From assembly GCA_043228905.1 (NCBI GenBank), contig JBHGNT010000015.1:4092001-4156000 (forward strand): a stretch of DNA of 64,000 nucleotides. The letters run 5' to 3'. Shown here piece by piece: positions 8,686-61,448 of this stretch (the stretch's first letter is position 1; every line of letters begins with the position of its first letter). The notes under the pieces are model-generated. The model worked only from the letters and a program-made list of their open reading frames with translations. It was not told the DNA's origin and did not search any database. A program made the translations under genes and the position numbers. Source of the DNA: Azolla caroliniana. Lineage: Eukaryota; Plantae; Polypodiophyta.

Positions 8686-11600
8686 TGTCGTGCCTTTCGG
8701 CTCCGGATCGTTTGCGTGAGTCGGGTGGGAACCACCGGGGTTTTGGACTTGGAGAAAGAAAAATACAAATAAGGCTAGTAAAGAATAGGTATAAAGAGTT
8801 ATAAGATAAGAATCTCGTGAATCCCACGAGTTTAGTATATTTAGTCAATATTTAGGTAGTAAGAGAGAATTATTTTAGCAAATTCGTGAATCCCAGGAAT
8901 ATTTTAGATTGATTGATCATTATAGAAAAATAATCAACAAAAAAAGAATATGTATTTAGATTGAAAGAAAGATATAAGAAACTTGTGAATCCCACAAGTA
9001 TAGATTATATTATTTTCGTGAATCCCACGATTATATTAATTGGTGTTTTAGGAAATATATCCAATTTCCCAAATATTTTTCACACGCCTATTACATTGTG
9101 CTCCCCATCCTTATGTAGTGATGGGAGAGACTAAGCATAGCTACATGCTTTTTTTTCTAATATGTTCATGCACACTAAATATGCATGTGATGCTTTTCTA
9201 ATCCTTCCTTTTATTTGCTAAATATAGTGCTCATGCACGCTAGATGTGCATGAGTCACTTTTTAGTTGCTTGCGTTTTTCTATAAAATATTCACGCACTC
9301 TAAAAATGCACGATTTACCTTTTAATAAAGGTAGGTGCAAATAAAGCACTTATAGTTATTAAATCTTTTTGTAGAACACTAAAGATAAGGTAGCATAATG
9401 GTAAAGTTGAGGTTTGGCTACGTGGAGGTACAAGGTTCAAATCTTGCCCTATGCATGTGATAAATATCTTGATATTCTTATTTTATTTATTTATATGTAA
9501 TTAAATCGGTTATATTATTTTTACTTTTTCACGTAGTGTACGAAATACACTACGACACTCGCCCCCTCCGAACCCGCACATCCTCCGGTATGTGCCGAAG
9601 TTGCCGATGCTCGTTGTCTCCCCTTCATCCTCCGTTTGTCCCGCTATGTCAACTTTGTCTCTCCATTTTGAGTAGACCCATTCTTTCCACCCGAACCATT
9701 GTCGCCATCCGATCCACCATATTATTTGTTCTCTCTCGTCATATTCTTGGCCCTTGTCATTCATGGTAGTGTCTTTTACTGGCCTCTTTCTTGTCTTCAT
9801 CAACCTTGACTTTTTTCCGGATCGCTCTCGTCCGATCGACTTTCGGTTTGATCGGCTTCCGATCGGATTCGTATTCGGCCGAATCGGAATCGGTTGTTTG
9901 GTTTTGATTGAGTCGGTCTCCTTCCGCCCCGGTTTCGATCTATCGGTTTCGGTTTCGGTTGGCTTTCTTTTCCTCGTTTTCACCAGCCTCGACCGGTCCA
10001 ACCTTCGGTTGAGTCGGATTAGCTTCTTTCCGGATCGATCTCGTCTGATTGGCTTTCGGCTAGGTCGGCTTCCATCCATATTCGCGTTCGGCCAAGTCAG
10101 ACTCGGTCGATCGGTTTTGACCAAGTCGACCCCTTTTCGGGTCGGCTTTCTTTCGGGTCGTCTTTCGGCCGAATCCTCATTCGCCCGATTCAGCTTTCGT
10201 TTGTGTCGTCTTTCGGCCGAATTCTCTTCCTTTCGGTTCGGCTTTCTTTTGGGTCGACTTTTGGTTGAATCCTCATTCGCCCGGTTCGGCTTTCTTTCGG
10301 GTCGTCTTTCGGCCGAATCCTCATTCGCCCGGTTCGGCTTTCGTTTGTGTCGTCTTTCGGCCGAATTCTCTTCCTTTCGGTTCGGCTTTCTTTCGGGTCG
10401 ACTTTTGGTCGAATCCTCTTTTACCCGGTTCGGCTTTCTTTCGGATCGGAATCCCGTCCGGATCACCTTCCATCCAAACCGGCTTCCGACTTTACCTTTC
10501 TTGCTGCCACCTCCCGTCTCTCCGGTCTCACGTTGGTTCTCGGACACAACTGCCGAAGTCTCTAGAATTAGTGGGTAGGAATCCTCGGTATTATCATCCT
10601 CCATTGTTTCACCCATAGCCATATTCTCGGCTATCTCTCCGTCGTATGCATCGACTTCGACCTTTGTTTTCTCTCCGCCACCTTCTGTCTCTTCGGTCTC
10701 ACGTTGCCTTTCGAACGCAACCGCCGGAGTCTCTAGAATCAGTGGTGGGGAAGTCTCGATATGGCCATCCGTCATTGATTCGTCCATAGCCACCTTCGAT
10801 TCGATGTCATCTTTCGTGGCGACCTCCTCAATCAAGTCCTCCTTGCTCTCTTTCACTGCATCAATTATGCAAACATCAATTATGCTTACCCCTTTTTCAC
10901 CCGATGTTTCGGACACTTGTATTCCGAAATCTTCTTCTACACTTGGGTTATCGGCCTTATCCTTCGCCATCGTTCTTTCGCAAGACAAGAGGGTAGCTTG
11001 TTTTACACCCTCTTCCGTCGCACCATCATGTTGTATTTCGGCCTTCATATCGGCTCCATCGTTTGTCTTCAATCGACCATCCTTCATCGGCCATGTCGTT
11101 GACAAGATTCTCATCTTCCTCTCATCATGTCTCCGGCATACCCTTTGGACTTCGGCCCAATTTTCGGTAAGACCATTCGTACCGTCATCGTCTTCGAGTT
11201 CGATCCCGATGTCCATCCTTTCTTTTCGATCGATCGATTTTACGAACATTAGGACTTTATCCTCCCCCACCAACCGTTGTTCCCGCTCCGAGAGTCGAGC
11301 AAAACGATTCTCGAACTCTAGGAATGCTTGTGTTGCACTTCGGTGGGTCTTCTCCGATGCCACCCATTCGTCGAATTCTCGTCGATCTTGTCCCTTCGAT
11401 CTCTTGTAATCATATGCCTCTCGTAAAGCTTCTTCGAATGACCCCCATGTCGAGTTTTGTTGCCGTATCTTGTGGATTCTCTCTTGTAGCTCATCCGTGG
11501 CCACCCGATTGAAGGATGTCACTTGCAATCCTTCCGGTATCCCACATCGTATCATCTCTGCCTTGTAGTCATGTAGATAGCGTGACAGATCGTTTCCGTT

Positions 11601-12636
11601 GAATTGTCCGTTTCGTTGTACGAGCCGCTTTACTACCACCGTGATCTCCGACATCGCTCGTTGTTCTTGTAGCATCCGTTCGAACATCATCATCATCATG
11701 TTCATCGCCTCTTGTTGATTCTCCATCTCCTTGCCACCCGCCTTCACGTCGGGTTCACCAACTGTGTCGTGCCTTTCGGCTCCGGATCGTTTGCGTGAGT
11801 CGGGTGGGAACCACCGGGGTTTTGGACTAGGAGAAAGAAAAATACAAATAAGGCTAGTAAAGAATAGGTATAAAGAGTTATAAGATAAGAATCTCGTGAA
11901 TCCCACGAGTTTAGTATATTTAGTCAATATTTAGGTAGTAAGAGAGAATTATTTTAGCAAATTCGTGAATCCCAGGAATATTTTAGATTGATTGATCATT
12001 ATAGAAAAATAATCAACAAAAAAAGAATATGTATTTAGATTGAAAGAAAGATATAAGAAACTTGTGAATCCCACAAGTATAGATTATATTATTTTCGTGA
12101 ATCCCACGATTATATTAATTGGTGTTTTAGGAAATATATCCAATTTCCCAAATATTTTTCACACGCCTATTACATTGTGCTCCCCATCCTTATGTAGTGA
12201 TGGGAGAGACTAAGCATAGCTACATGCTTTTTTTTCTAATATGTTCATGCACACTAAATATGCATGTGATGCTTTTCTAATCCTTGCTTTTATTTGCTAA
12301 ATATAGTGCTCATGCACGCTAGATGTGCATGAGTCACTTTTTAGTTGCTTGCGTTTTTCTATAAAATATTCACGCACTCTAAAAATGCACGATTTACCTT
12401 TTAATAAAGGTAGGTGCAAATAAAGCACTTATAGTTATTAAATCTTTTTGTAGAACACTAAAGATAAGGTAGCATAATGGTAAAGTTGAGGTTTGGCTAC
12501 GTGGAGGTACAAGGTTCAAATCTTGCCCTATGCACGTGATAAATATCTTGATATTCTTATTTTATTTATTTATATGTAATTAAATCGGTTATATTATTTT
12601 TACTTTTTCACGTAGTGTACGAAATACACTACGACA
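8686..12636 (-). mobile_element. Non-autonomous Gag-only LTR retrotransposon (TR-GAG-like, gypsy-related)
   Basis: 872-bp LTRs at 8686-9557 and 11765-12636 (TGTCG..CGACA, about 3 differences seen), 4-bp TSD ACGT, tRNA-Trp PBS (ttcacgtcgggttcacca, 11743-11760) and a PPT at 9558-9571. No PR/RT/IN motifs. Confidence 0.92.
9510..11726 (-). CDS. Gag-like protein with long acidic and basic-repeat extensions (~738 aa)
   Basis: The uninterrupted ORF most likely starts at MENQQEAM just after the PBS. Its N-terminus (FNGNDLSRYL..ELQERIH..WGSFEEAL) aligns with the gag at 50761, and the stop lies inside the 3' LTR. Confidence 0.8.
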   Translation of the reverse strand: MENQQEAMNMMMMMFERMLQEQRAMSEITVVVKRLVQRNGQFNGNDLSRYLHDYKAEMIRCGIPEGLQVTSFNRVATDELQERIHKIRQQNSTWGSFEEALREAYDYKRSKGQDRREFDEWVASEKTHRSATQAFLEFENRFARLSEREQRLVGEDKVLMFVKSIDRKERMDIGIELEDDDGTNGLTENWAEVQRVCRRHDERKMRILSTTWPMKDGRLKTNDGADMKAEIQHDGATEEGVKQATLLSCERTMAKDKADNPSVEEDFGIQVSETSGEKGVSIIDVCIIDAVKESKEDLIEEVATKDDIESKVAMDESMTDGHIETSPPLILETPAVAFERQRETEETEGGGEKTKVEVDAYDGEIAENMAMGETMEDDNTEDSYPLILETSAVVSENQRETGETGGGSKKGKVGSRFGWKVIRTGFRSERKPNRVKEDSTKSRPERKPNRKEENSAERRHKRKPNRANEDSAERRPERKPNRANEDSTKSRPKRKPNRKEENSAERRHKRKLNRANEDSAERRPERKPTRKGVDLVKTDRPSLTWPNANMDGSRPSRKPIRRDRSGKKLIRLNRRLDRSRLVKTRKRKPTETETDRSKPGRKETDSIKTKQPIPIRPNTNPIGSRSNRKSIGRERSGKKSRLMKTRKRPVKDTTMNDKGQEYDEREQIIWWIGWRQWFGWKEWVYSKWRDKVDIAGQTEDEGETTSIGNFGTYRRMCGFGGGECRSVFRTLREKVKII

Positions 12637-17662: not shown

Positions 17663-18279
17663 TTTTGCCTTCCTCTCCAGACAGAACACCTTCGATTCCT
17701 AACCGGAATCGGACCAAAGGACTGTGGTACGTGGTGGTCAGGTCTCTTTTACGAAACGGTGTCGCGTTGTTACGCGCGTGCGTGTAGAAGGGCGAGACCA
17801 CGGGGGTCTTGGACTAGGGAGTGGAGGAGAAAGATTAGCTCAAGAGGAGAAGAGAACGAATATGACATTATGATAGAAGAAGAAGATGCAATCAAGATAC
17901 TCAACAAGAAGTTCTATTAAGAAATCAATGATTACAACAAATGGTGGCCGCCATGGCCGCACCAAACGACTATATGAAAAACCCTAAAGGAAAACCCAAG
18001 AAGAAAATCGTAACCGAAACCCTAACCCTAAAACGAAATGGGAAGAAGTAGAACCCTCGACTAAGTGGTATACCTTACTCACACAAAATAGGCAACCCCC
18101 ACAATGGTGCCTTCTCTCTCCTTTTATAGCACAAGGAGGGAAGACCGCTTACAAAAGTGAGACTAAAATATCCCCTTTCATTCAAAGGGGATATTTGCCT
18201 TGATTTGGGGGAGGGTGAGATTGATGGCCCCTTAACTCCCACCTCCTCACAAACAACTAGGTACCTATGTACCGCATAG

Positions 18280-18341
<62 letters not shown>

Positions 18342-18905
18342 TCTCTCTCGCGTGGATGTGCGTACAACCACATCACCTTTATACCTTTATTACTATTACA
18401 AATACATTATGTACGTGTGCAACGTTGCACATTGCTCTTTGGCTCTCGTTGCTCGGGTTTCCGCTTGTGGACGAAAATCTTCACGACAACGGGATGACAC
18501 CCTACAGATTATGTAAGAGGATACCTCGGGTTATGCATACACGATAGGGAGAGATAGATTACTTAACAATTATTGAAAGCGAACAATGACACAAAATAGA
18601 CCCAACATTGTTTAGATTACGGAAATGAGTACTGATTACAGTTACACGGCTATCTACCGAAATGTATCAGATACACTTTAGTAGGATTAATTACGTACTA
18701 GTACCCTCAGACTTCTCTCCTATAGGTCTCTCTTTCTTCCTTCTATCTCCTACTCCTTATATAGAGGCTCCTCGTCACACTCCTTCTCCTTCCACGTTTT
18801 CGGTTGTGTTTTTTTTGGCTCCTTCTGATTGCTTTCGGTTGTTTACGTACTGCTACCTAATTCCTATTGTGATTCGTATGTTACTATTCTGGCCCATGGA
18901 AAACA
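17663..18905. mobile_element. ~510-bp solo-LTR-like insertion, itself interrupted by a second solo LTR
   Basis: 5-bp TSD ACCAC at 17658-17662 and 18906-18910 inside a repeat unit. The ends are ttttgcc and ggaaaaca. Confidence 0.7.
17760..18488 (-). mobile_element. Solo LTR of the TGTCG..CGACA gypsy group
   Basis: Termini tgtcgcg and cacgaca, 4-bp TSD ACGG, the shared U5 motif at 17797-17814 and a (CT)n tract at ~18282-18349. Confidence 0.85.
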
Positions 18906-21083: not shown

Positions 21084-23486
21084 ACAATAGCCAAAGAACA
21101 TCTATAACAAGAATCATGAACCCCAACTAATGTTGGCAAAGAAAAGGAGCCCGAGTCCACGACTGATGAGCTCATAAAGGGAATGAAGGATTTACAACTC
21201 AAGTTCACAAAGCTTGAGAAGGGAGAAAGCTCAGGTATCAGATAAAAGCCCAATGGGGAAGAAAAAGGTGAATTAGTTTGTCGATGCATATGGTGCAATA
21301 GCACGGAGCACCTCAAAAGGAAGTGTTAGAAAGAAACTTTATCTTCTATCAAAATGAGAGGATCCACTCATCGGAGACCTAATAACCCCTAAAATCTAAC
21401 TTCGGCAAAGGTGGGATGAAGAAATTGATGAAGGACAAAGAGTCGAAGAATGTTCAAGCGATGTACTTTTCGACTACCTTCAGGTTGAAGGTTGATGATC
21501 TCAAGATTGGATCAAGATTTTGGGGAAAGGTGATAAAGTCCAGTAATGACAAAGAGTCCAACCACCGGACTTACGAGAGGTCGGCGACGAGATGAATAAT
21601 ACTAGGTGGAATGACCTAGTATATTTCAATGATCGCCAAGATAGCAAGGATGAATGCCCATGAGGTGATTGTTGAAGAAAAGAGAAGAAGAACGGAAGAA
21701 GCGAGTCCTTCAAGAAAAACCGAGATCCGTGAGCAAAAGAAAGAAGAAATGGATAGAGCTACTGTGGGGCGATGAAAGAAGACAAAGGTAAGAAGAAGGT
21801 CGCCCCGTCATTCAAACTTGCTTCCGATATCGAAACACCCACCGACCTAAACCAGGTGCTCTAGAATCTAGGATTCTTGACAACGAAGTCGAGTAAACAC
21901 TTCGCGAAGTATTAGGGATCGAGAAGGAGTTCCACGAAGTGATTATCGACGTGATTCGAAGAAAAAGACAAGTGATTGAAGAAACATGTGCAGTAAATAC
22001 CGTCATGATATGGGAGGAAGATGAAGATATGGACACTGCATTGTTAGCTAGGGTACGGAGTGCCAACATGTAGTGTAGTCGTGAAGTGGAAAGAAGCCAT
22101 TACACCCGCGTGCACTGGGCTCGAGCAACAACCGAGTTTCCAATCAGAATTGGAGATCAGATGGAACCGTGTGTGGTGCGCATCAACCATGGCTCCGAGA
22201 TCAACATCATATCATTTGATTTCTACAATCACGGCATATTGCCAATAGAGAGGAACCATGGCTGGAAGGTTAGAGTAGCAATGAAGGTCATGAAGGATTT
22301 ATGTGGTGCATGCCCCAATATTAAAGCTACGATTGGGAATATGTTAGTAGATCAAAACTTCTTCGTCCAAGAGAAGTCATTTTATCTGGTAATCCTGGGG
22401 TAGTCGTACATCACATCAATATGGATGGAGACTAAAGTGATTGATAATGGAGCAGCATTTGGCAAGATTCGGAGTCAAGATGGGAAGAGGTCGGTAATGT
22501 TCCTTCTGTTCAACCAAATCAAGAAAGGAATAAGGAGCATCTATGGGATCATCCACAACGAGATGTGGAGATTTCGTACAAGATTTGCAAGATAGGCCCT
22601 TACAAAAAAGGGCCATGAAGCCCCAAGGGAGAACATGAGGATTTTGAAGAGGATCAAAATGAAGTAATGTGAACTCGCCCACAGGTGTCCAAGTTTAGAG
22701 GGGGTGGGTGTCGTGAAGTTGAGGATTCACGATATTGAAACAATGTTAAAAATATTTCGAAGTACATTTTCCATTTGGAGCTTGAGACGAGGAGCATGTA
22801 GGATTTTTATATTCATGAATTGGAGTTTGGAAGCCCAAGATACAACCTCTAGAAGGATCAATGTTACCTTCAAGATCACTCAGGACACAAATGTAATTAT
22901 ATAAAAAAGGGGAGTTCGAAATTAAATGAGGGCAATTTTGTAATTTCTGGATTGTAAAAAATATAAAATAGAATTTATAAATAAATAAAAATTAAAAGAA
23001 ATAATAATAATAATAATAATAGTGTCCATGCATGAGGCGGTTTGTCAATGGCCTCAAGGAGGGTGGTTGGGCAGTTTACCCCCTATAAAAGCCACTTCCA
23101 TGGTGGTTGAGAAGGGGGGAAGAAGAGAAAGCCAGTGAAGAAGTTCACGAGGGTGGGGATGCAGAGGTCACGAAATCAAGAAAATGAAGAAGTTGAAGTA
23201 GTTTATCTCAAAACCTTATCGGAAATAAAGGTTGTGAGTTTAAATCCTACCAAAATCACTTCCATTTGCTAAACAAGTTTTGTAAGATAAGCATACTATA
23301 TATAAAGACAAAGTTAAAATAATAGAGAAAAAAAAGAGTTTAAGTGGTTTATTTGATAAACCTTATTTCTAAGAGAGGAGCTAAGTTTGAGTCTTGCAAA
23401 ATAACATTTGGCAAACAAATATTGTAACTGGTTTTCTACAAATAAAATTATTTTCATCACAACATCACATCTATCTTGTCATGACA
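21084..23486 (+). mobile_element. Degraded gypsy element (gag-protease remnant, PPT, 3' LTR ~22709-23486)
   Basis: Fragments RSHYTRVHWARATTE..INHGSEINII..GACPNIK match the ORF at 48587-50761. The PPT agagggggtggg is followed by tgtcgtgaag, and the LTR ends catgaca. Many stop codons and no RT. Confidence 0.75.
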
Positions 23487-24480
23487 CCATTCGCATGATT
23501 ATCCTTGAGTTACAGAACCCCAACGGTTGTGACACACAACTACAATCTTTATGACAGCATCTGATGCGGCGAAAGAGGCCTTAATGGCTCGGTCAGCTGC
23601 CGCACACGTTTCAACAAGTCGACTCCAACTCGGCTCCAATTGTCTTTGTCGAAAATTCCGGTTCAGCATAACACCTCGAAGCATATAGACGTGAGATATC
23701 ACTTCGTTTGGGACTACGTCATTCCAAGGAAAATCAGCCTCAAGAAGATATCTACAGTCGACAATGTGGCAGATGGGATGATCAAGTGTCTTCTGAAAGA
23801 TCGATTCTGATCCCTTCAGCACCAGATGGGTGTAACAAAGAACCATTCTGGTTGAGTCGAACATTCAAGATGGTTTCAAACGATCAACAAATCCGCATAG
23901 TCGACTCAACTTCAGAATCTCTAATTGGGATTCCCTTTTGGACTAGTTGATTCGACTTTAGCTCTTCCAGCCTCGGTCGACCCGGCTTTTTGTTTCCGGA
24001 TGTTGCCGATTCGGACAAAAGTTGACTTGTTCGAGAACCCTTTGTATAAATTTGTATTTTCTATTTATTCTCATGATTACAGATTTTTGTTGTATACGCC
24101 CATTATGGGGGATTGTCGAATACGGGAAATAATGGACATATTCACACTATCCCATTTGGCCATACTAGGTTTTAGGCTATTTATGTAAATAGTGGAAAGG
24201 GTAGTTGGTATTTAAATTGACGCTTGTAACCTAGTTTTCAAGTGGTTGTTGTTCATTTCATATATTGTGTTGTTGTAACTTTGAGAATAATACAGTTACA
24301 TATTGTTGTGCCTAACCCTTTCTCCTCTCACTATTGCTTTTCATTGCTTGATCTTGTCTCTTGTCTAAGTTGTCTTTGTCTTCTTCAATCTATTATTCCT
24401 CTCTGTTATAGCTTTGAGTGTTAAAAAGATCTTCGACTAAGAGTGTTCATTTGTTCCACTACTAACGATTGGTTCCAACA
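23487..24480 (+). mobile_element. Degraded copia RNase H end plus LTR
   Basis: KHIDVRYHF-like coding sequence at ~23680-23710, the PPT-like tgggggat, then tgtcgaat...ccaaca. Confidence 0.65.
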
Positions 24481-27132: not shown

Positions 27133-27140
27133 GTTGTAAT

Positions 27141-28223: not shown

Positions 28224-28231
28224 GTTGTAAT

Positions 28232-34038: not shown

Positions 34039-34265
34039 CGGATGAAGAAAGAGAAGGAGATGGGCAGTCTCCTCTGTTTCTCTACTCGCTGTTCTGTTTC
34101 TCTGTGTATGCTCTGTTCTGCTCTCTGCTTGATAATGGCTTCTGTTGGGGCAAGAAAAGGAAGGATTTCATGGAAGAGCTTTCTTGATGGAGTTTGTTAA
34201 AAGGTTTTTCAATGGTTTTTCTTTCTCTCTTCTCTTCTTCTCTACACACTCTCTCTCTCTCATCG

Positions 34266-38785: not shown

Positions 38786-41700
38786 TGTCGTGATGCGGCA
38801 TGTCTAGTGCGAGAAAAAAATCAAAAATTGAGGATCCACACACATTTCACGAATACTTGTAAAAATGAAAATAAATAAACCTAGGTCACAATGGCATTGA
38901 GTGCATGTAGAGGGTTGCAAGTAGGATTTGAACCTTGCACCTCTAAGATAAGAGGCAATTACCTTACCACTAAAGCTACTACTAAGTGCTTTAGATGTTC
39001 TATATTTCTTTCTCATATTCAATATTCCGTAGGAAACAAACGAACAAAACCGTGTACACAAAACCACGGTTTTAAGCCCATGGTTTCCTGCATGTCTCAA
39101 AGCAAAACTGTGTGCATAGAAACCATGGCTCCAAGCCCATGGTTTTGTGCATGGACAAACCTATAAAACCCCTAGTACGGCTTGTGTAAGGGGGGGGCTC
39201 AATATGATATGACCATCATCATCACCATCAATAATATAAGCTTCTATTTCTTCTTCTTCGCATCTATCTTGTAATTATTTATCTACTTCTCAAAGTGTAC
39301 AATCTTCAATCTTCTCAAGTGTAATAGGTCTTCCTCCAATCTTACATTCACATCGTCCTCTTCTCAATACCTTGACGGACATCCTCCTTGGTCCAAGACC
39401 CCGGTGGTCCCGCTCAAGCGAAGCACGCTCGCACGCGCATCTTCGCGACATTTTTGGTGAACCCGACATGAAGAGCGGTAGGGGAGGATGAAGCTGGACG
39501 AGGAATATGTAATGAAGGCAATGTCAAAGATGATGATGGAGTTTTCAAGAGAAGGGAAAACACGACATGCGGCCCAACAAGCCGTCGAAAGCATGTTCAA
39601 GAGGAGTGAAGGAAGCAATGAGGCTGGAGTACTTTTGTCAAGTGGTGGCCGAACCAATCTTCGAAGAGATTAAAGAGATTCAAAAAACTCACGATTCGTG
39701 GGTGTCCTTCAAAGAAGCTTTACGAGAGTCATATGGTTACAAAGAGCAAAAGGGACGAGGTCTGTATGAGTTTCACGAATGGGTGTCATTGAGAAAGACC
39801 CACCAGAGTGCTATGCATGCATTCATTGAGTTTGAGTATCGCTTCGCTCAACTCTCGGACCGGGATCGAAGATTGGTGGGGGTGAATAAAGTTCTGATGT
39901 TTGTAAAGTCAATCGATCGGAATGAAAGGAAGGCCATTGGAATCCAACTCGAGGATGACAATGGTGAAAATGGCCTCACTGAGGATTGGGCCAAAGTGGA
40001 AAGGGTATGCCGACAACACGATAAGAGGGAGATGAGACTCTCATCGACAACAACACGACCCACAAGGGATGTTCAAAGGAGAATGGGATGTGGCAATAAA
40101 AACCCACTGAAGGAAGAAAGCTCGAAGAGGGAAGCTTAGACAGAACTCAACATAGAAGCCTTGATGAGAGAGGCATTAATGAACTTAAAGGCACAAGTCG
40201 AGGTTGAAGAGAAGATGAAAACAAAACCGAGGAAAATGGTGATCGACGAAGAGGAGACCTCCCCACAAATGCAGACTATTGATGCGGCCAATACGAAGGC
40301 CCAGGTTCGGTATGACAGTACCATGGGAGAAGGTGTGAAACAAACCACCTTCTCGACTTATGGAGGAACGACGGTCGAGAGAAGGGCCGAAGACTCGAGA
40401 GCGGGAAATGCTGCTTTAAGAGTGGACGAGCATTTCGGAACACATGTTGTGTCCGAAATATCGAGTAATGAAGGTGCAAGCATGAGGGAAGCTTGCTGGA
40501 TCAAGGGATGTAAAGAGTGCGAGGTCGACGTGATTGAGGCGGTAGCCACGAGGAACGACATCGAGTCGCAGATGGCTAAGGAAGAGTCCACGACGAATGA
40601 CCGTGTCGAGACTTTCCCAACACTTGATCTAGAGACTTGGGCAGTTGCGTCCGAGAGCCAACATGAGACCCAAGAGACAGAAAGTGGTGGGGAAGAAAAT
40701 ATTGAAGACAATGCGAATAATAACATTGAGCGAAAGATGGCTACGGATGAGAAGACGGTGACCGATGGTGTCAACGTTCTCCCCACAATTGTTCCTGAGA
40801 CTTCGGCAGTTGTGCTCGAGTGTCAACGTGAGACCGGAGAGATGGAAGGTGACGGCAAGAAATCGAAGGACCAAAGCGTCGATGAGGACGATGACCACAG
40901 ACGAAGGGATCCCTCCACACCGGTTCCGGAGACTTCGGCAGTTGTGCCCAAGAGCCAACATAAGACCGGAGAGATGGAAGGTGGCGGCGAGGAGATGAGG
41001 GTCGAAGCCAGCACATACAGAGGAACGATGGCCAACAAAGAGGCCAAAAACAAAGCTACAATAGAGTTCAATGAAGAGCCAAAGAGCGGAAAGAAAGGAA
41101 GAACCGGAATACAATCTGGATGGAAGATGAAGCCGTTGGTATTCCGACCCGAACGGAAGCCAACCCGAACGAGAGTTGATCAACCGGGCCCGACCCAACT
41201 GAAAACCGGATGGAAACTAACCCGGACGAAAGGCGATCATCTGAGTCTGATTCGGCCGAATGTGAATCCGAACGAAGGCCGACCAAGCCAGAAGTTGATT
41301 GGTCGAGACCGATCCCGACAGAGGTTGAGCCGGCCTAGACGGAGGTCGAAGCAAACGAGCCGCGACATCCAGTCGAGGCTGTTGAGCATAAGGAAAGGCA
41401 AGCATGAGACAAGAAAGGATGATAAAGAAAAGTTAAGTGACCAAGGAGATGGCAGAGATGAAGGTGGCACATGCACGAGGCATGAAGCGTTATGCTCGGG
41501 AGGAGCAAAGGGAGCCATGACAACTAGACATGGCAATAAAACAGGTGAGCGAATGATATGGTGGATCGGATGGCAACGACAGTTCGAAGTAGACGGCAAA
41601 AAGACGGTGCGGACGAGGCGCAAGAAAGGAGGAAATCAAACACCAACTGCCTTTGACCCTTCCACATCACTCTTTTCTTCTTGGCACATACCGGAGGATG

Positions 41701-42380
41701 TGCGGTTTGGTGGGGGTGGATGTCGTGATGTGGCATGTCTAGTGCGAGAAAAAAATCAAAAATTGAGGATCCACACACATTTCACGAATACTTGTAAAAA
41801 TGAAAATAAATAAACCTAGGTCACAATGGCATTGAGTGCATGTAGAGGGTTGCAAGTAGGATTTGAACCTTGCACCTCTAAGATAAGAGGCAATTACCTT
41901 ACCACTAAAGCTACTACTAAGTGCTTTAGATGTTCTATATTTCTTTCTCATATTCAGTATTCCGTAGGAAACAAACGAACAAAACCGTGTACACAAAACC
42001 ACGGTTTTAAGCCCATGGTTTCCTGCATGTCTCAAAACTGTGTGCATAGAAACCATGGCTCCAAGCCCATGGTTTTGTGCATGGACAAACCTATAAAACC
42101 CCTAGTACGGCTTGTGTACGGGGGGGGCTCAATATGATATGACCATCATCATCACCATCAATAATATAAGCTTCTATTTCTTCTTCTTCGCATCTATCTT
42201 GTAATTATTTATCTACTTCTCAAAGTGTACAATCTTCAATCTTCTCAAGTGTAATAGGTCTTCCTCCAATCTTACATTCACATCGTCCTCTTCTCAATAC
42301 CTTGACGGACATCCTCCTTGGTCCAAGACCCCGGTGGTCCCGCTCAAGCGAAGCACGCTCGCACGCGCATCTTCGCGACA
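38786..42380 (+). mobile_element. Second Gag-only (TR-GAG-like) element, nested in the 5' LTR of copia B
   Basis: LTRs at 38786-39450 and 41721-42380 (TGTCG..CGACA), TSD ACGT, Trp PBS tggtgaacccgacatga at 39455 and PPT ggtgggggtgga. Confidence 0.92.
39488..41813 (+). pseudogene. Disrupted Gag-like acidic/basic ORF homologous to 9510-11726
   Basis: Frameshift near 39600 and an in-frame TAG at 40137. Shares KVLMFVKSIDR..GLTE.WA.V.RVCR, the ETSAVV repeats and the WWIGW motif. Confidence 0.8.
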
Positions 42381-43546: not shown

Positions 43547-45135
43547 GTGGACCGATTGGACGACTGAGTCGATACGACCAGTCCGATGAAGAGCCGGCGA
43601 GTAGTGGAGACTCGGCCGTGCATTCCCCGCGCAGGAAGCCGAGGAGACGGCTTACGCGCAAAGAGAAAGGGAAGAAGAAAGTGTCGGATTCCGGCACGGA
43701 AAGGAACGAGTCAGACCGACGCGAGTCCGACTCCGAGGGAACCGGTGACGGGTCTTTAAAGGTGAAGACCGCGTCGACCGAGAAGGCCTCGACATCGGCT
43801 AATGTGAGATTATGCCGATCTACCCGCCAGAAGAACCCAGTTGTGCGGTTCGGATACAACGACTACATGGCGCATCATTATGCGTACATGACTCGTGTAG
43901 CGAAAGTGCGTGAGCCGGAGAGCTACGCAGAAGCGGCTAAAGACGCGAATTGGCGAGCCGCGATGGAGGAAGAGATGCACGCATTGGCGGAGAACGAGAA
44001 CCAATTTGTGTCGTGGCGTGGCTCGCCTAGAAGCGTAGCGTTGCGTAGACAAAAGATATCGTGAAAGTGAGGAAGGAATCACTGGGATTATGGACGGAAG
44101 AGACGAAAGAGTAGAGATAGATAAATAGTGATCAACAAGATATGACAAGATAGGATATAGAATGATATTTGAAGCAATAAAAGAGATTTATAATTATTTG
44201 ATAAAAGAGTTACAAAATGATTGTGCACATCATTGAACCTCCGAACTTTGTCTTGCAAGGTAATCGCTCTTCTCTTTCTTGATCGTAGACCATTACAATC
44301 TTCACTTCAATATTTTGATGAAGATAAGGCTCGAACCGCCTCCCTCTTGTTGAGAGTTGACCACCACGACCGCCAAGCTAGAGCTCCACGTTTATGTTAA
44401 ACTTCTTCCCTTCTTTCTCTATTTTTATGGTATCTCTTATGAAGTACATAATTTGATTGATATCTCATACATATCCCCCTTTGATCTTCTCTTTCACCAT
44501 TTAAATAGGTGCCCCCATGCATATGATGCATTGGAGGGTACAAATCATGCATGTAGTGCATGAAATGCATGTGATGCATGATCACCATTTGGCGTTCATG
44601 CATTACATGTGATGCATGATAAACATCTCGCTCATTTGAGCTTTTATGTATGAAACAATATATGCAATAACAATAAACATGAAAACATAATCTTAAAGAG
44701 AAAGGGCCTAGCCTAATGGTAGGTGTGTTGACTTTAGTGTATGAGGTTGTGGGTTCGAGTCTCAAAATACTATTGAATACAACATGCAACTTTATTTTTA
44801 TATCATGAAGCAAATCCTTTATGTAATATAAAGTATATATAAAGTATGCTTTATTTTATGAATATTATTAGTGTAGAGTAAATGGTAAGATTTGAGAGTC
44901 ATAGGGTGGGCTTATTGGTTCAAGTCCTCTCTTGTTCGTGTAATATAATATATTTATATATATATATATATTATTTTTCTTTACATATATATAATATTAT
45001 CATATGTGTTGTTATAAAACATTATCAAATGTTATTTTAGTTACGTATTTATCTTATTGTAGACTTTTAATGTGAAGCTTTCGTACTTCACGACATCCAC
45101 CCCCTCTAGACCTGCACATCCTCCGGCATGTGCCA

Positions 45136-48100
45136 CTATCTTTCATCTTCATGTTGATCTATCGGAGGAGGTTCAAGCTCAAACCTTTTCTTAAATACTT
45201 TTATCCTCTTTCCAGCTACCACGTTTAGGATTAGTGTCCCATCCAATTCACTAAGCTTATAAGTAAAGTTATCATATACTTTTCTTACTATATAAGGCCC
45301 AAACCATCTTTCAGCGAACTTGCGGACGGTGCTATGTTGATTATCTAAACTGCTATCGTACACGAGCACCCAATCTCCTTCTTCTATTTTCTTAGGTCGA
45401 ATTCTATGACTTTTATCAAAACGGATTTTATTCTTTAGTCGAGCCTCCTTTAATCGTTGGGCTGCTATTTCTATATCTTCAGGTCGACGCTCTAATTGTT
45501 GAATTCGCAAAGCAAGTAATTCTTCTCTGCTCACCTCTTCTCTCCATGGAATAGATATCCATGACATAATTGATTCTTCTATCGGCATGATGGGCTTTTG
45601 GCCAAGTATCAATTCAGCTGGCATGTATCCTGTTACTGAACTATGAGTTGTTCGATCCGCCCATAGTGCATAAGGTAGCATGCGTGGCCAATCTCTTATT
45701 TTACCTTTACAGCTTTTCACGATCGCCTTAACTATTGGGCTATGTCCTCTTTCAATCTTTCCATTGGCTTCTGGATTATACGCAGTTGTAAGTGATAATT
45801 TGACCCCTATTCGGCTGAAGAATTCTCTAGCTTCATCAGAGTCGAGTTCTCCTCTATCTGCAATTATTTTACCAACACACCCGTAACGACATATTACATC
45901 TTCTAACAAAAATTTACATACAGCTCTAGTTGTTTTTTGTCGTAGTGGTCTTCCTTCTACTTGGTTTGTAAGGTCTTCTCTTGCTAGTACTAAATATCGC
46001 ATTTGACCTTCCCCAAGTGGCATTGTCACTAAATCAACCATCCATTTATAATGCATTGATGATGAATATGTTGGTTTTAGCTCATCTCGATACCGGATAG
46101 TTGAATACCTCTGGCAAACCTCACAGGTTTCCACAAATTTCGTTACATCTTTATACATATGTGGCCACCAATACTTTTCTTTCAACTTCATAAATGTCGC
46201 CCATATGCCTCTATGTCCTGCCCACAAACTATCATGGAATTCATTAATTAATTTTCTCTTAATGTCATCCTTACAAATGACTCGAAGAGGATTTTCGGTT
46301 GGCCTTTTTGGACGCCTCCATAAATGCCCTTCATGTAAAAAAAACTTGAATGCTCGTCTTCGAAATTCATTTAATTGTTTCTTCGACCATGATGGGTTGG
46401 CTTCTTGAGTCTTTAGAAAATTTCCTATTTCTAACCATTGACCTTCATACTCTGTGTCTTTGAACATTATACTTACATTAAACTCATCATGAGGCGTAAT
46501 AGATTCTTGATGAGCAAATTGATGGCTTGTAGTTGCCCAGTTCCTATATTCAGTTTGCATCACCTTTTCATTTATGAACCTTGCCCTTGACAACATATCT
46601 GCAACTGGGTTGTCTTTTCCCTTTATATGCCGCAATTCTGGGTTCATGGTTCTGATGTATGCAATCCACCGAAGCATTGCAATATCTGGTGTCGTGCAAC
46701 TTGCTATCATTCCAATGAGTGGCAAACAATCTGTTTCAACCACTACATCTGCTCCGATCAAGTAATCTCTATCTGTTTTTAATGCAGTAAGCAAACCCCA
46801 CAATTCTCGTTTAACTTGTGCATAGTTTCTTTGTCTTTCATTTAATATCTTTGCTCCAAATCTGATAGCATATCGATGTTGGTCTTCATCTTCTTGGTTG
46901 ATAACCCAACCGATCCCGATTGGGCTAGTATCAACTGTTACTATAATTGGTCTTTCACCTTTGTAGTCTGGTTGACGAAGAACTGGTGCTTTCAGTAATG
47001 CTTCTTTCAGCTGTTGAACAACTTGTGTATGTTCATCAGTCCAAATAAACTTCTTTCCTTTTCTTAAAAGTTGGTAGAGAGGATCTGAGACATGTGCAAA
47101 GTGTGGTAACCAAATATGATAAAACACACATGCACCCAAAAATCTTCTCACCTCTGTTACCGAGTCGCAAACTTCCTTCATATTTTGTATTGCGTTAATT
47201 TTGATCGGTGAAGGCTTCCTCCCATACCACCCACACATATGACCAACTATTAGAACTTCGTTTTGCCCAAAGCAAGACTTTGTTCCTGATAGTGTCAAAT
47301 GTACTTGCTCAAGCTTATTTAAAATATTTTCACAGTCATTAATGTGATCCATCACAAACTTTCTGCAACCATTTCCAACCATAGTCTCATCTTTCTCTCT
47401 TTCTAAGCATCCCTTAATAGGAATATCATCTAAAAATGGCATAGTTACCTTTGGGATGTATTCATGTAGAACTTTGTTCATTGCATTCATCATATGAGCA
47501 ACCGAATTCGTCGCACCTTGAGGTAGAGTGCACATTCGAACCAACCCAATTGGTGTTTTCATTGTTGTGATATTGCGACTATCAATTGCTAGTTGAAATT
47601 GGTCGTATCCTGAATATAGGTCTCCCATAGAGTAAATCGCTCTGCCAGCAAACGCTTCCGCAAATTCATCAACGATCGGTCCGATTCCCGCATTTCGGAT
47701 TGTGACTTTGTTGACTGGTTGTAGATCTTGAATGAATCTTAGAGAACCATCTTTCTTTGGAACTGTGAACCATCTATTGGAGTATGGTGCATTTGAAGGC
47801 TCTAAAATCTTCATCTTGACTTTATCCTTCAGCAACTCCAACAATTGAGGTAATCGAGCTCTCGGTACTGCAATAGGTTTAAAATTCCAAGGAATATGAG
47901 GGATAGTAAATATTACCATTGGCGTCACCACCTTTGGATTTACACAACCAATCTCCTCAGCTTTGAATGCAAACGCTTTCCCATGCCTAAAGATCATTTC
48001 TTTGAAAGTCACGATCTCTGATTGCAGAAGAAATTCACCCCTTCCGATTCTCAAGTTATTTATTGTCTCCGAAGTGAAGTGATGTCCGATCTTCTCTATT

Positions 48101-48666
48101 GGTCGAAGCATAGGCTCGGTTGCTGCTGCCTCCATCTTCTCTTCACTACCAATAGGTAATGGTACTGCAGCAGGTTTGACCTTTTTATCTATTGTTTTGT
48201 ATTTTGTATTACATAAACTTTCTACTTCTTCATATTTACAATTATACCTATCAATCTCATAATACATATCAATTGAGTTTACATGTATCTTTCTAACATT
48301 CTCATCATCTTCTTTCAAATACATTTCTAACTCTTCTAAAGTATTTGCAAAAGAAATTTCTTCCATAACACTTTCAATCTGCTCTTCCATTTCAAGTACT
48401 CCAGTATCCTTCAATGCCTGCTGAAACAGATTAGCATTCTTTTTCAAGTTCCTCTTGCATTCATACATCCTAGTCACACATATAGCACCACTTTCAGAAA
48501 CATGAAATGACTTATTCATATGTTGTAATGCCCTATATGAGGGTCTTTTAATAATGGGACTATTGCAACCCTCACTCGCAACAGTCCTAGTCAAAAACCT
48601 GATTATCAAAATCATCACAATCTTTTGGTATTGAATGATCACGAAGCTCTTGCTTGTTCCTCTCAT
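45136..48666 (-). CDS. Pol: RT-RNase H-integrase
   Basis: DLYSGYDQF, LPQGATNS, FLDD, VTVDTS, HDSLWAGH..CEVC, EANGKIER and WFGPY motifs; no chromodomain. Confidence 0.93.
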   Translation of the reverse strand: MRGTSKSFVIIQYQKIVMILIIRFLTRTVASEGCNSPIIKRPSYRALQHMNKSFHVSESGAICVTRMYECKRNLKKNANLFQQALKDTGVLEMEEQIESVMEEISFANTLEELEMYLKEDDENVRKIHVNSIDMYYEIDRYNCKYEEVESLCNTKYKTIDKKVKPAAVPLPIGSEEKMEAAATEPMLRPIEKIGHHFTSETINNLRIGRGEFLLQSEIVTFKEMIFRHGKAFAFKAEEIGCVNPKVVTPMVIFTIPHIPWNFKPIAVPRARLPQLLELLKDKVKMKILEPSNAPYSNRWFTVPKKDGSLRFIQDLQPVNKVTIRNAGIGPIVDEFAEAFAGRAIYSMGDLYSGYDQFQLAIDSRNITTMKTPIGLVRMCTLPQGATNSVAHMMNAMNKVLHEYIPKVTMPFLDDIPIKGCLEREKDETMVGNGCRKFVMDHINDCENILNKLEQVHLTLSGTKSCFGQNEVLIVGHMCGWYGRKPSPIKINAIQNMKEVCDSVTEVRRFLGACVFYHIWLPHFAHVSDPLYQLLRKGKKFIWTDEHTQVVQQLKEALLKAPVLRQPDYKGERPIIVTVDTSPIGIGWVINQEDEDQHRYAIRFGAKILNERQRNYAQVKRELWGLLTALKTDRDYLIGADVVVETDCLPLIGMIASCTTPDIAMLRWIAYIRTMNPELRHIKGKDNPVADMLSRARFINEKVMQTEYRNWATTSHQFAHQESITPHDEFNVSIMFKDTEYEGQWLEIGNFLKTQEANPSWSKKQLNEFRRRAFKFFLHEGHLWRRPKRPTENPLRVICKDDIKRKLINEFHDSLWAGHRGIWATFMKLKEKYWWPHMYKDVTKFVETCEVCQRYSTIRYRDELKPTYSSSMHYKWMVDLVTMPLGEGQMRYLVLAREDLTNQVEGRPLRQKTTRAVCKFLLEDVICRYGCVGKIIADRGELDSDEAREFFSRIGVKLSLTTAYNPEANGKIERGHSPIVKAIVKSCKGKIRDWPRMLPYALWADRTTHSSVTGYMPAELILGQKPIMPIEESIMSWISIPWREEVSREELLALRIQQLERRPEDIEIAAQRLKEARLKNKIRFDKSHRIRPKKIEEGDWVLVYDSSLDNQHSTVRKFAERWFGPYIVRKVYDNFTYKLSELDGTLILNVVAGKRIKVFKKRFELEPPPIDQHEDER

Positions 48667-50761
48667 GATTTGGGCGAACGGTCATAAATTGTACAGTTCG
48701 TCGTCCATCTTCACTACGGATTTTCGCATAGGCAGAACCATTGTCGAGGACTTTGGTCTCCATTCGTACGGCTGTAATGTATGGTTGCCCCAGGATTATT
48801 GGATAGGTAGATCCTTCCTGCACAAAGAAATGTTGATCTACCTCTATATCACCAATAGTAACCTTTACATTTGGGCATGCACCAAATAAATCTTCCGTGA
48901 CTGATGTGGCAGCTTTTACTCGCCAACCATGTTGAGTATCAATTGGCCATCTACCTTTCCTGTAAAAATCAGCACTCATTATATTTATTTCAGAACCATG
49001 ATCAATAAGTGCCATCACGGGGTCTGGAACATTTCCAATCTTCACATGATGCTCAGTAGTGGCTCTTGCCCAACATTTGAGAGAGTAATGGCTTCTTACA
49101 TCTGTTGAATTTATCATTGAGGTTGATGCATGTTGAGAGTCAACAACAATATTGTTTGACTCGTTGCTCACCACTTCATATGCCACCTTCGGATTTGTCT
49201 CTTTAACCTGCTCATTTACTTGCTTCTTTCTTCGCACAATATCAATTATTTCATCATGAAATTCCTTTTTTGCAATACCTAACACTTCTCTTAGTGTAAA
49301 TTCTACTCGACTGTCTAGTATTCTTGTTTCTAAAACTTTCTTTAAATCTGTATCCTTTTCAATATCAGACATTAATTTGAATGAAGGACCAGATTTACCT
49401 TTTTCAACTTTTGCGTCCATCTCTTTTCTTTTGCTTTCTCTTGTTTCATGCTTTTTGGTTGAGCCAATCTCCTCATCCGATCTTTTCCTTTTTTCTTCCA
49501 CTATCACCTCATGCTCTTGGTGTTCTGCCATTTGAGCATAGACTGTCATAACATCTACTGGAACATCCCATCCAGTGTTTTTCCTCACAGAATCTCCGGC
49601 AACACGAAGGTCTTCCATCTTCATCTTTTGTTTTTGTGCGGTACTTACAACCTTCTCCCAGAATGGTGATCGGGATGGCATGTCATCGAGACGCACCCCT
49701 GCCGTTGCCGAGTAGTACATTGCGGAAGCCTTCTTTGCTTCAGCTTCTTCAAATTTAACCTTAACACCACCATCACCAAAGTTCTTTGTAAGCAGAGATC
49801 TAGTTTCAGTTAAGTAAATGTTACCATTTTTCCAATAGACCAAGTCTCGATTCTCCATGTCTTTATATTCTTCACAATCACGTAGACGATGGTCGAGACT
49901 ATCACACCACATGCATCGAGGTCGAAATGGTTCCCTTGACCTCGAAGTCTGACCATTCTCAAGCTTTGCCACTTTAATTGTTAGATCTTTCATACTTTGA
50001 ACTAAATCATCAAGCAAAAACTCACTCTTAGTTCCCGTCATTTCTCGTGGTTGATGGACCATTTCGTGTGATGGTTCTCGACCAAGTCTTTGAACTTCGA
50101 TGTTTTGCTCAAGCCGATTTGTGTTTCCCACATGTGGTATTTGTAGCATTACACCATTCCTTTGCATTCTTTTCATAAATTTATTACAAGCATTTGTTAC
50201 CTCATTCCAATCTGTCGTTATACCATCCTCGGTATTTGGCACTTCAAGCATAAATTCCAATTCTTTTCTATATCTCTTGTCAACTGCCTGCAAAAATAAA
50301 GCAACCTTTTGCCAAGACAAAGAATTTCTTTCTTCTGGCTTTAGGTGTCCATACATCCTATCAAACTCTCTTTTTGTGTCAGACACAGATAACCCTTTAT
50401 CTTCTTTTAAGATCCATTCATGAAATGAACGCATAGTAACTCGAGAGAAATCCTCACGAGCATATTCAGACACAAGTGCTTCTTTGAATGCATTCCAATC
50501 CAAACTATGCAATGCTTGTATTTCATGAATTCTATCTCTTAATTCCATGTCCACTAATTTATAAAAGTTTGCTATCATATTGACATCATTTATACCAAAC
50601 ATTTCCATTTCATCATAATATATATTCACATACTTCGAAATATTTGTGCCATCAAACATACCAATCTTCTCTCGGACTTCTCGTAAGGCATGAAATAATC
50701 GATCTTGATTCAACTTTTCAATAAACAACATTACCGGATCCATTGTACTCGTACTTGCCAT
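48587..50761 (-). CDS. Gag-protease
   Basis: Zinc knuckle CMWCDSLDHRLRDC and aspartic protease ALIDHGSE..IILGQPY. Confidence 0.9.
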   Translation of the reverse strand: MASTSTMDPVMLFIEKLNQDRLFHALREVREKIGMFDGTNISKYVNIYYDEMEMFGINDVNMIANFYKLVDMELRDRIHEIQALHSLDWNAFKEALVSEYAREDFSRVTMRSFHEWILKEDKGLSVSDTKREFDRMYGHLKPEERNSLSWQKVALFLQAVDKRYRKELEFMLEVPNTEDGITTDWNEVTNACNKFMKRMQRNGVMLQIPHVGNTNRLEQNIEVQRLGREPSHEMVHQPREMTGTKSEFLLDDLVQSMKDLTIKVAKLENGQTSRSREPFRPRCMWCDSLDHRLRDCEEYKDMENRDLVYWKNGNIYLTETRSLLTKNFGDGGVKVKFEEAEAKKASAMYYSATAGVRLDDMPSRSPFWEKVVSTAQKQKMKMEDLRVAGDSVRKNTGWDVPVDVMTVYAQMAEHQEHEVIVEEKRKRSDEEIGSTKKHETRESKRKEMDAKVEKGKSGPSFKLMSDIEKDTDLKKVLETRILDSRVEFTLREVLGIAKKEFHDEIIDIVRRKKQVNEQVKETNPKVAYEVVSNESNNIVVDSQHASTSMINSTDVRSHYSLKCWARATTEHHVKIGNVPDPVMALIDHGSEINIMSADFYRKGRWPIDTQHGWRVKAATSVTEDLFGACPNVKVTIGDIEVDQHFFVQEGSTYPIILGQPYITAVRMETKVLDNGSAYAKIRSEDGRRTVQFMTVRPNHERNKQELRDHSIPKDCDDFDNQVFD

Positions 50762-51915
50762 GTTGATGTTGATCTTTACTTTAGATGTCTCTTCTACTTC
50801 CCCGTTTCACGTCGGGTTCACCAATTTGTGTCGTGGCGTGGCTCGCCTAGAAGCGTAGCGTTGCGTAGACAAAAGATATCGTGAAAGTGAGGAAGGAATC
50901 ACTGGGATTATGGACGGAAGAGACGAAAGAGTAGAGATAGATAAATAGTGATCAACAAGATATGACAAGATAGGATATAGAATGATATTTGAAGCAATAA
51001 AAGAGATTTATAATTATTTGATAAAAGAGTTACAAAATGATTGTGCACATCATTGAACCTCCGAACTTTGTCTTGCAAGGTAATCGCTCTTCTCTTTCTT
51101 GATCGTAGACCATTACAATCTTCACTTCAATATTTTGATGAAGATAAGGCTCGAACCGCCTCCCTCTTGTTGAGAGTTGACCACCACGACCGCCAAGCTA
51201 GAGCTCCACGTTTATGTTAAACTTCTTCCCTTCTTTCTCTATTTTTATGGTATCTCTTATGAAGTACATAATTTGATTGATATCTCATACATATCCCCCT
51301 TTGATCTTCTCTTTCACCATTTAAATAGGTGCCCCCATGCATATGATGCATTGGAGGGTACAAATCATGCATGTAGTGCATGAAATGCATGTGATGCATG
51401 ATCACCATTTGGCGTTCATGCATTACATGTGATGCATGATAAACATCTCGCTCATTTGAGCTTTTATGTATGAAACAATATATGCAATAACAATAAACAT
51501 GAAAACATAATCTTAAAGAGAAAGGGCCTAGCCTAATGGTAGGTGTGTTGACTTTAGTGTATGAGGTTGTGGGTTCGAGTCTCAAAATACTATTGAATAC
51601 AACATGCAACTTTATTTTTATATCATGAAGCAAATCCTTTATGTAATATAAAGTATATATAAAGTATGCTTTATTTTATGAATATTATTAGTGTAGAGTA
51701 AATGGTAAGATTTGAGAGTCATAGGGTGGGCTTATTGGTTCAAGTCCTCTCTTGTTCGTGTAATATAATATATTTATATATATATATATATTATTTTTCT
51801 TTACATATATATAATATTATCATATGTGTTGTTATAAAACATTATCAAATGTTATTTTAGTTACGTATTTATCTTATTGTAGACTTTTAATGTGAAGCTT
51901 TCGTACTTCACGACA

Positions 51916-60500: not shown

Positions 60501-61448
60501 GCCGGATTGCAACTCTCGTAATGATTCCCGAAGGATTTCATTCTCTAGCTGAAGTTGTTGCAAGGCTGTCATGATTTGGTTTGGGTTGTCGACGGAGCTG
60601 GACATGGCAACAAGAATAGGGAAGGTGAACAAACTGTCACGAACAAGTATAATAGAGCAAAGCAAAGACAAGACTAGAACACAAGAGAGAGGAAAGGAAC
60701 AAGAACTCAACTAGAATCCATAACTGGTGTTGTTCACCTTGATTAGAATCAAGGTGCACCTGAGTATTTATACAAGAAGGTAGGGCTATGTAAGCCAACT
60801 AGAAATAGAGTATGCGTGATGATGCATGCAATAGAGAATGCATGAGAATGTGTGCAAGCTAGAAACATCCGATGTTCAATCTACACTACATGAAGTTGGA
60901 TTTGGTATAAGGATGCATGTGTAGTTCAATTGGTAGGGTTTCCCAATAGAGATGATGAGGTCTTAGGTTCAATACTTACCTTCCTCTGTGGCATATGTCT
61001 ATAACAGTCAAAAGTATTGACAAGTGCTTTGTTAATAATTAGGTAGTTAACTAGGGTTAATTAGTATCTAATTATGTGAGTAGTTAATAAGCGAAAGATT
61101 ATGTGATATGTGTGTGAGAGGAAGTTACACTTATGAACAATATTATAAATAGGGGATGATTAACGGGAGTGTATATTAAAAAGCATCATCAAATCCAAAA
61201 ATTCCCACAATGAGGTATATATACATCTCATATGCAAAGGTGCACATGTGTGAGTAGAATATAGGTACAAAGGTGTAAGTCCTATATTAAATGAACATGA
61301 GAGTGGAGGATGTACAATGTATCCCACTCAAGTAAAAATCCTATTTAAGGCTTTAAGGTCAACACACTAACTAGATTCTATCTAGGTAACCACTAAGTTA
61401 CGTGTGTTGACTAACTAACTAAATCTAGTTCAGCTTGATATCTCAACA

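Follow-up and report, generated by a model that had tools for sequence, protein, structure and literature searches.

What use could a protein-coding retrotransposon have for the promoter of a tRNA gene? The question is raised by a stretch of 64,000 nucleotides from Azolla caroliniana (GenBank assembly GCA_043228905.1, contig JBHGNT010000015.1, positions 4,092,001 to 4,156,000), hereafter the window. tRNA-Lys genes and pseudogenes fill its bases 1-21,000 as a tandem array, and the remainder consists of nested gypsy and copia elements around one host gene. Four of the gypsy elements (A to D, Table 1) carry in their long terminal repeats (LTRs) A and B boxes which, at tRNA spacing, agree with the consensus of a type 2 (tRNA-type) RNA polymerase III (Pol III) promoter. 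Judged by their sequences, these cassettes are a real and apparently selected feature of the LTRs. We propose, with a probability of about 0.45, that the cassettes of these Phygy-type and Tcn1-like LTRs bind TFIIIC and TFIIIB and form a boundary which, wherever the element has inserted, would keep its own RNA polymerase II (Pol II) enhancer and TATA box open and directed inward.

tRNA-type promoter boxes in gypsy LTRs

The original prediction, made from the sequence alone, had named five A/B-box pairs, and all of them were found at the positions and on the strands given there, with copies in the second LTR at 12470, 41913, 51529 and 51694. Its list was not complete, as a sense cassette of element C had been overlooked in both LTRs (44380-44327 and 51200-51147, minus strand). 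Allowing up to two mismatches to the textbook pattern, only the five noted cassettes and this sense cassette were detected in the window outside the tRNA array; two other Phygy-type LTR families (17760-18488 and 22709-23487) and the nine copia LTR pieces of the window contain none. The gap from the GG of the A box to the B box is 32 nt in four of the five noted cassettes and 31 nt in one, and 32 nt is also the gap in the intact tRNA-Lys genes of the window. A run of four T (T4) follows 37 nt past the B box of cassette A, and no T4 run follows cassette D within its LTR.

Two distant gypsy lineages had been claimed for the cassette-bearing elements and are indeed present; A, B and C all belong to one of them. 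They have common TGTCG...CGACA ends and the same primer site, TGGTGAACCCGAC, after the 5' LTR, which we presume to match tRNA-Trp. As A and B both lack pol and show 57% identity in gag, they are not independent lineages. By sequence, A, B and C are one lineage of the Phygy type and D alone is a distant, Tcn1-like one. Phygy elements in REXdb show a 4-bp NCGN duplication, a tRNA-Trp primer in 81% and a length of 7.7-10 kb (Neumann 2019, PMC6317226). A, B and C resemble them in a 4-bp NCGN target-site duplication (TSD; ACGT in A and B), a presumably tRNA-type primer-binding site (PBS) and, for C, a length of 7.9 kb without a chromodomain match. Tcn1 uses self-priming instead of a tRNA PBS (PMC6317226), and D also has no tRNA PBS; as self-priming predicts, the sequence after its LTR is near-complementary to a stretch some 30 nt past the TATA box (60729-60740). 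The available parts of PMC6317226 mention no Pol III boxes for the LTRs of either group.

Conservation and spread of the cassettes

Using an integrase alignment we collected relatives and took the best 80 of 199 confirmed metagenome loci, in 64 of which the start of the 3' LTR could be located. The resulting LTR set comprises 53 sequences from 23 families, namely 50 loci and three window LTRs, each with no less than 370 nt of LTR. The textbook A and B pattern is a general consensus that was not trained on these sequences. With at most one mismatch it occurs in 7 of the 23 family representatives compared to 0.0 in 30 shuffled sets (0.0-0.07 in the shuffles as a whole), an excess that had been expected, and a control of 175,942 bp of pol sequence gave 0 matches at this cut-off and two at two mismatches. 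A trained cassette profile, for which each locus was scored with its own cassettes left out, assigned 22-47 bits to cassette-bearing LTRs, the 99th percentile of shuffled sequences being 11; other LTRs showed no match of at least 14 bits, bar two outside the LTR proper (L047 and L077). Of the 30 informative integrase clusters, 11 have a cassette of their own by this profile. Cluster L077 is not counted as a carrier since its match sits in a nested inverted LTR, and 11 more clusters with less than 550 nt after the integrase and no match were excluded.

The four informative loci from other collections (L040, L046, L061 and L063) are all without cassette and all fall into one clade, so a single host group or a single sub-clade may be the only carrier of the cassette. 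On the integrase tree, clusters with and without cassette are interleaved; because 35 of the 73 inner branches of this quick tree are open, one gain with subsequent losses and several gains are indistinguishable. U3 regions are also swapped, as seen for L027, L035 and L042, where near-identical integrases are combined with quite different U3 sequences and the cassette is present or absent. A scan of IMG/VR with the Phygy integrase alignment gave no relatives, and a scan with the reverse transcriptase (RT) of D gave three distant loci (56-62% identity) of which none has a cassette, a result that is probably uninformative.

As had been predicted, the boxes are more conserved than their flanks within families. 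In five family alignments, chosen among cassette-bearing families, invariant columns make up 59 of 66 in the boxes, 21 of 24 in the AGGT word, 50 of 126 in the spacer and 782 of 2090 in the rest of the LTR region, whereby columns and sequences are not independent, the members being related, and a Fisher test serves as a guide only. The boxes are thus 89% invariant and the spacer of the same insertion 40%. Gapped columns are absent from the spacer (0/126 compared to 577/2090 elsewhere); L012 is slightly misaligned in the L006 alignment, which makes the box count of that group conservative, and its zero-gap count misses a length difference of 1 nt. When the gap was left free between 15 and 119 nt, 26 of 36 pairs were found at 31-33 nt. 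The spacers are not wholly unrelated, contrary to the original prediction, with 34% identity between groups, slightly above the 28% of shuffled sequences. Across 31 distinct cassettes several features recur that had not been searched for, namely TA past the A box (77%), T33 (74%), A38 (74%) and GAGGT at tRNA positions 43-47 (65-97%), the last being a conserved word 5-9 nt ahead of the B box. Family D offers a less circular test. Its contigs, recruited by overall likeness and not by boxes, show many differences in spacer and flank, and among the 40 of 48 rows listed, every difference within a box either affects a free position or brings the sequence closer to the textbook letter. One high-depth contig links the D cassette to its upstream LTR sequence. 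Two contigs from a presumed RNA run partly match the LTR of D, which is not evidence on expression.

No such conservation was seen for an RNA shape. The cloverleaves are poor, as the original prediction had stated: the four stems of the 31 cassettes pair at column-shuffle level, six cassette RNAs fold with z from -0.95 to +0.44 compared to -3.34 for a real tRNA-Lys, and in positions 37,000-64,000 of the window Rfam gave no match at E up to 1. A functional tRNA gene or a conserved fold was rejected on these grounds. Since the boxes are conserved while stems and folds stay at chance level, selection seems to act on a DNA promoter rather than on an RNA.

A strictly antisense orientation, as first proposed, could not be confirmed. 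Among the 11 carrier clusters, cassettes lie antisense in U3 in nine and sense in U3 in three; past the TATA box they are sense in four clusters and weakly antisense in one. Cassette orientation is therefore biased, not fixed. An LTR can hold up to three or four cassettes, and of 20 antisense cassettes 15 have a T4 run no more than 60 nt past the B box (background 0.43). Measured from the TATA box, the innermost antisense cassette is ~146-272 nt further out, usually with a CATGCA-rich block in between that is rare elsewhere and on whose outer side most cassettes are located; this position fits the TFIIIC/Pol III module that had been suggested. Blocks resembling that of C are present in A, B and D. 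The CATGCA/TGCATG-rich block resembles the RY motif of B3 factors and may act as an enhancer. As some families have a second cassette past the TATA box, their promoter is bracketed by outward-facing units.

Regarding the origin of the cassettes, spacer identity to the tRNA-Lys array of the window is 14-48%, which does not stand out from background, and no derivation from the array is discernible. Copy-specific insertion of a short interspersed nuclear element (SINE) was rejected. The cassettes are family features shared by sister copies, as predicted, and have no TSD of their own; an A-tail of at least 7 is absent in 31 of 31 and no consistent flanking duplication was found. A non-LTR repeat at 27120-28230 and another at L047:2690-3654, with related ends, contain tandem, decaying tRNA-like A/B-box units, so that such cassettes are not confined to gypsy LTRs in this host group. 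The D cassette resembles a unit of the repeat in the L047 flank (76% spacer identity), which shares an end with the window repeat. This likeness suggests that tRNA or SINE sequence was taken up repeatedly and passed between repeats; the LTR module probably stems from more than one such capture and was swapped or lost when U3 was replaced. On one contig a D-type cassette was found within unrelated flanks.

A proposed portable boundary and its alternatives

Barriers formed by tRNA genes and ETC (extra TFIIIC) sites in yeast were reportedly described by Donze and Kamakaka (2001) and Simms (2008). In the LTRs, TFIIIC would bind the B box and the A box would position TFIIIB; retention of the A box implies that a complete Pol III initiation complex would assemble, and not an ETC-type TFIIIC site alone. 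Pol III might then make short (~100-130 nt), unstructured by-product RNAs that terminate within the LTR at T-runs close by. Once bound, the complex would keep nucleosomes away, stop silent chromatin from spreading in from the flank and, like yeast tRNA genes, prevent Pol II from starting outward or antisense from the enhancer. It is known that the A box is required for TFIIIB placement (PMC11724288) and that the B box, together with the region upstream of it, is held within the winged-helix domains of tauB (PMC11811891), a contact that could explain the GAGGT word. Pol III complexes assembled in yeasts serve as barriers and insulators and prevent bidirectional Pol II starts, and at times they repress their neighbours (PMC7990762, PMC4228148); it is because of these activities that we read the cassettes as portable TFIIIC/TFIIIB boundaries. 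A chromatin role independent of the product is indicated, since the boxes are conserved in coding elements with a TATA box in which Pol III is unlikely to make the genomic RNA. With less conviction we suggest that tRNA-gene promoters were domesticated time and again by coding plant LTR retrotransposons, in two or more distant lineages, as portable chromatin fences whose TFIIIC/TFIIIB complexes bracket the Pol II enhancer of the element, an anti-silencing strategy acting purely in cis.

Several observations, together with the relatedness of the aligned family members, weigh against a boundary. The cassette is not universal but dispensable for the lineage, because 19 of the 30 informative clusters do without it, and L027 and L035 are close relatives that lose it via U3 replacement. 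Outward-facing fences are not a rule either, since the sense cassettes in U3 of three clusters face the TATA box and the weak antisense cassette of one cluster lies past it; a cassette past the start site could also be a Pol II roadblock. The rigid spacing of 31-33 nt is not fully explained, as TFIIIC in yeast accepts 31-93 nt (PMC11724288), and the evidence for barriers in the cited work comes from yeasts throughout and not from plants. Finally, L011 and L049 show a C-to-T change in the CpG of the B box, which suggests that this site does get methylated.

Instead of protecting the LTR promoter, active Pol III cassettes might reduce it and thereby limit expression or the cell range of the element. 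Such self-dampening would draw on the same five-alignment conservation as the boundary, on the short distance of 146-272 nt to the TATA box and on the inhibition of nearby Pol II promoters by yeast tRNA genes (PMC4228148), and it would work in either orientation and with cassettes past the TATA box. We nevertheless consider it unlikely, as the same paper describes global position effects on adjacent Pol II promoters as minimal and as selection on replicating copies should favour activating modules. Slightly less probable is an action of the short Pol III RNA by its sequence, either by pairing of an antisense U3 RNA with the 3' end of the element RNA or by feeding or decoying small-RNA silencing. 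The antisense U3 cassettes of 9 of the 11 carrier clusters, the retained A box, which implies transcription, and the T-runs behind most cassettes would agree with it, and an RNA complementary to its own element requires no conserved spacer. The sense cassettes (three clusters in U3, four past the TATA box) would yield no antisense RNA, D is without a T4 run past its cassette, and double-stranded RNA directed against oneself should usually be costly.

The patchy spread on the integrase tree would also suit neutral relics, meaning old tRNA or SINE insertions that hitch-hike in LTRs and were selected by a box-based search. A large genomic tRNA array is at hand as a possible source, the tRNA-like units of the non-LTR repeats include the one similar to cassette D, the D-type cassette in unrelated flanks would fit as well, and many Repbase LTRs contain tRNA-like pieces (PMC10886601). 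The contrast between boxes and spacer together with the lack of drift in spacer length largely refutes this explanation. Moreover, the cassette is kept by all four informative members of the cluster related to A and by all five of the L006 cluster, signs of a SINE are absent and the D-family contigs were not recruited by boxes, so we regard relics as improbable. More improbable still is a landing pad or decoy for Pol III-targeting retroelements, for which one could refer to the targeting of Pol III genes by Ty elements (PMC4228148) and to the several LTR pieces within the tRNA array of the window. No insertion was found just upstream of any cassette in the window LTR pairs and in eight further LTR regions, Phygy-type insertions here follow a 4-bp NCGN target (ACGT, ACGT, ACGG) and not a fixed distance to tRNA genes, and there is no obvious benefit in conserving boxes for this purpose. 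We give the least credit to a sense cassette acting as promoter of the genomic RNA, as in Helenus or Cassandra. In C and three other clusters a sense cassette does lie in R/U5, a possible Cassandra-type start region. Yet C, which codes for gag-pol, possesses a TATA box, the cassettes are for the most part antisense, and 26 runs of T4 or longer (8 of at least five T) stand on the sense strand from one sense cassette of C to the other, the first after 163 nt, which makes it unlikely that Pol III produces the genomic RNA of these elements.

LTR Pol III promoters have been described for the tiny, non-coding Cassandra, Helenus and Ajax elements, where they were shown or proposed to drive the RNA of the element. 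Helenus (TRIMp3; Kojima 2024, PMC10886601) is the closest precedent, rather than Cassandra, which the original prediction had cited. Like our cassettes it has tRNA-derived LTR sequence with conservation centred on the A and B boxes and a mostly non-functional tRNA, for which an origin from SINE insertion was proposed, and Helenus-1_SMo from Selaginella even has GGAGGT ahead of the B box. In contrast, Helenus elements are non-coding miniature retrotransposons with terminal repeats (TRIMs) of 311-1263 bp, whereas the cassette hosts are protein-coding, 3.6-7.9 kb long and have a TATA box. The tRNA part of Helenus is in sense orientation (~15 LTR consensus sequences) and the proposed promoter of the element, whereas the cassettes are mostly antisense in U3. 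Our elements therefore share with Helenus/TRIMp3 the boxes in the LTR but are neither short non-coding TRIMs nor provided with a sense promoter of the genomic RNA. Cassandra TRIMs (Kalendar 2008, via PMC10886601 and PMC12786077) also have an internal Pol III promoter conserved in plant LTRs; theirs is 5S-type (A, IE and C boxes), sense and drives the genomic RNA of a non-coding element. The yeast tRNA-gene barriers and ETC sites share with the cassettes A and B boxes used independently of a product as barrier, insulator or start block (PMC7990762, PMC4228148), but they are fixed host loci and were shown by experiment, while the cassettes are mobile, next to their own promoter and assigned a function by inference. 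The authors of PMC10886601 argue that autonomous elements must use Pol II and note, with no analysis of the cases, tRNA-like pieces in 'not a few' Repbase LTRs; the bare occurrence of tRNA boxes in LTRs is therefore not new.

In tRNA-derived SINEs, too, A and B boxes are kept while the cloverleaf decays; the cassettes differ in having no tail, A-run or own TSD and in moving as part of the LTR. We found no account of Pol III boxes in coding plant LTR elements in the accessible parts of the literature, where antisense or autonomous cases in the Helenus supplement or in Repbase could be overlooked, and within the same limits no account of coding elements whose Pol II promoter is accompanied by several conserved cassettes that mostly face outward. 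In the text available, a term search of a paper on transposable elements of P. patens (PMC7466625) returned no mention of tRNA or polymerase III, and PMC13578239 and PMC13437025 do not mention LTRs. If the boundary reading is true, the cassettes would give transposons a new means, encoded in cis, of resisting silencing, and they would offer a natural experiment on whether the barriers that tRNA genes form in yeasts also function in plants. The material for it is at hand in sister LTRs that have or lack the cassette, in some cases on near-identical integrases, and high-copy LTRs would scatter many potential TFIIIC sites or Pol III boundary elements across the host genome.

Host elements and their surroundings

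The coordinates of the cassettes and their host elements are collected in Table 1.

Table 1. Cassettes, host elements and the CATGCA-rich block of element C in the window (PBS, primer-binding site; TSD, target-site duplication)
Feature	Position	Strand	Remarks
Cassette A (3' LTR of A)	9391..9444	+	A box, 32-nt gap, GAGGT, B box; antisense in U3; 272 nt to TATA-like box
Cassette A, 5' LTR copy	12470..12523	+	
Cassette B (5' LTR of B)	38924..38978	-	antisense in U3; ~182 nt from TATA box
Cassette B, 3' LTR copy	41859..41913	-	
C, inner antisense U3 cassette	44709..44762	+	200 nt from TATA box; copy 51529-51582
C, outer antisense U3 cassette	44874..44927	+	31-nt gap; copy 51694-51747
C, sense cassette, R/U5 side	44327..44380	-	~128 nt past TATA box; copy 51147-51200
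Cassette D	60922..60976	+	antisense in U3; ~147 nt from TATA box
CATGCA/TGCATG-rich block of C	44520..44625	-	between cassette and TATA box
Element A, pol-less, Phygy-type	8686..12636	-	gag-like open reading frame only; inserted in tRNA-Lys array; LTRs 11765-12636 (5') and 8686-9557 (3'), 99.7% identical; TSD ACGT (4 bp); degenerate TATA-like box 9111-9117
Element B, pol-less, Phygy-type	38786..42380	+	inserted in copia LTR; LTRs 38786-39450 and 41721-42380; TSD ACGT; TATA box 39162-39168
Element C, full-length Phygy-type gypsy	44009..51915	-	gag with DUF4100; RT, RNase H, integrase; LTRs 50829-51915 and 44009-45095, identical to each other; TATA-like box 44500-44507
Element D, 5' LTR, decayed Tcn1-like gypsy	60635..61448	-	Ty3 capsid, RT remnant; TATA box 60765-60772; outer LTR end inferred from junction with a copia LTR

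The only named homologues of the element C pol are Riccia proteins with up to ~66% identity, and element D is truncated within pol. The long open reading frames of A (9513-11930) and B (39537-41813) are gag-derived, with low-complexity, repeat-rich C-terminal parts and no Pfam match. Behind the 3' LTR of C follow 8 nt copying the start of the primer-site region (43995-44008; 51916-51921), and the element is flanked by a 6-nt duplication where 4 nt are expected; this aberrant 3' end may be an unprocessed cDNA end. Among the metagenome relatives, flanks past the 3' LTR often start with ACG (L014, L015, L019, L055, L057, L067 and L080), which fits the NCGN target preference of Phygy.

The tRNA-Lys array (1-21000) is built from units of ~730 bp; every unit contains one tRNA-Lys(CTT) gene or pseudogene, accompanied by another tRNA-like copy that is more degenerate. 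The array received 14 ARAGORN calls and is interrupted by LTR elements. One of these is a solo Phygy-type LTR without cassette on the minus strand (17760-18488, TSD ACGG). An old, internally deleted Phygy-type element at 21088-23487 is related to L050/L051, and its LTR has no cassette. The likely host gene is located at 29500-34200 on the minus strand; it seems to contain introns and includes an open stretch of 324 codons without Pfam match. Just upstream of it lies an inverted-repeat element (34263-34557).

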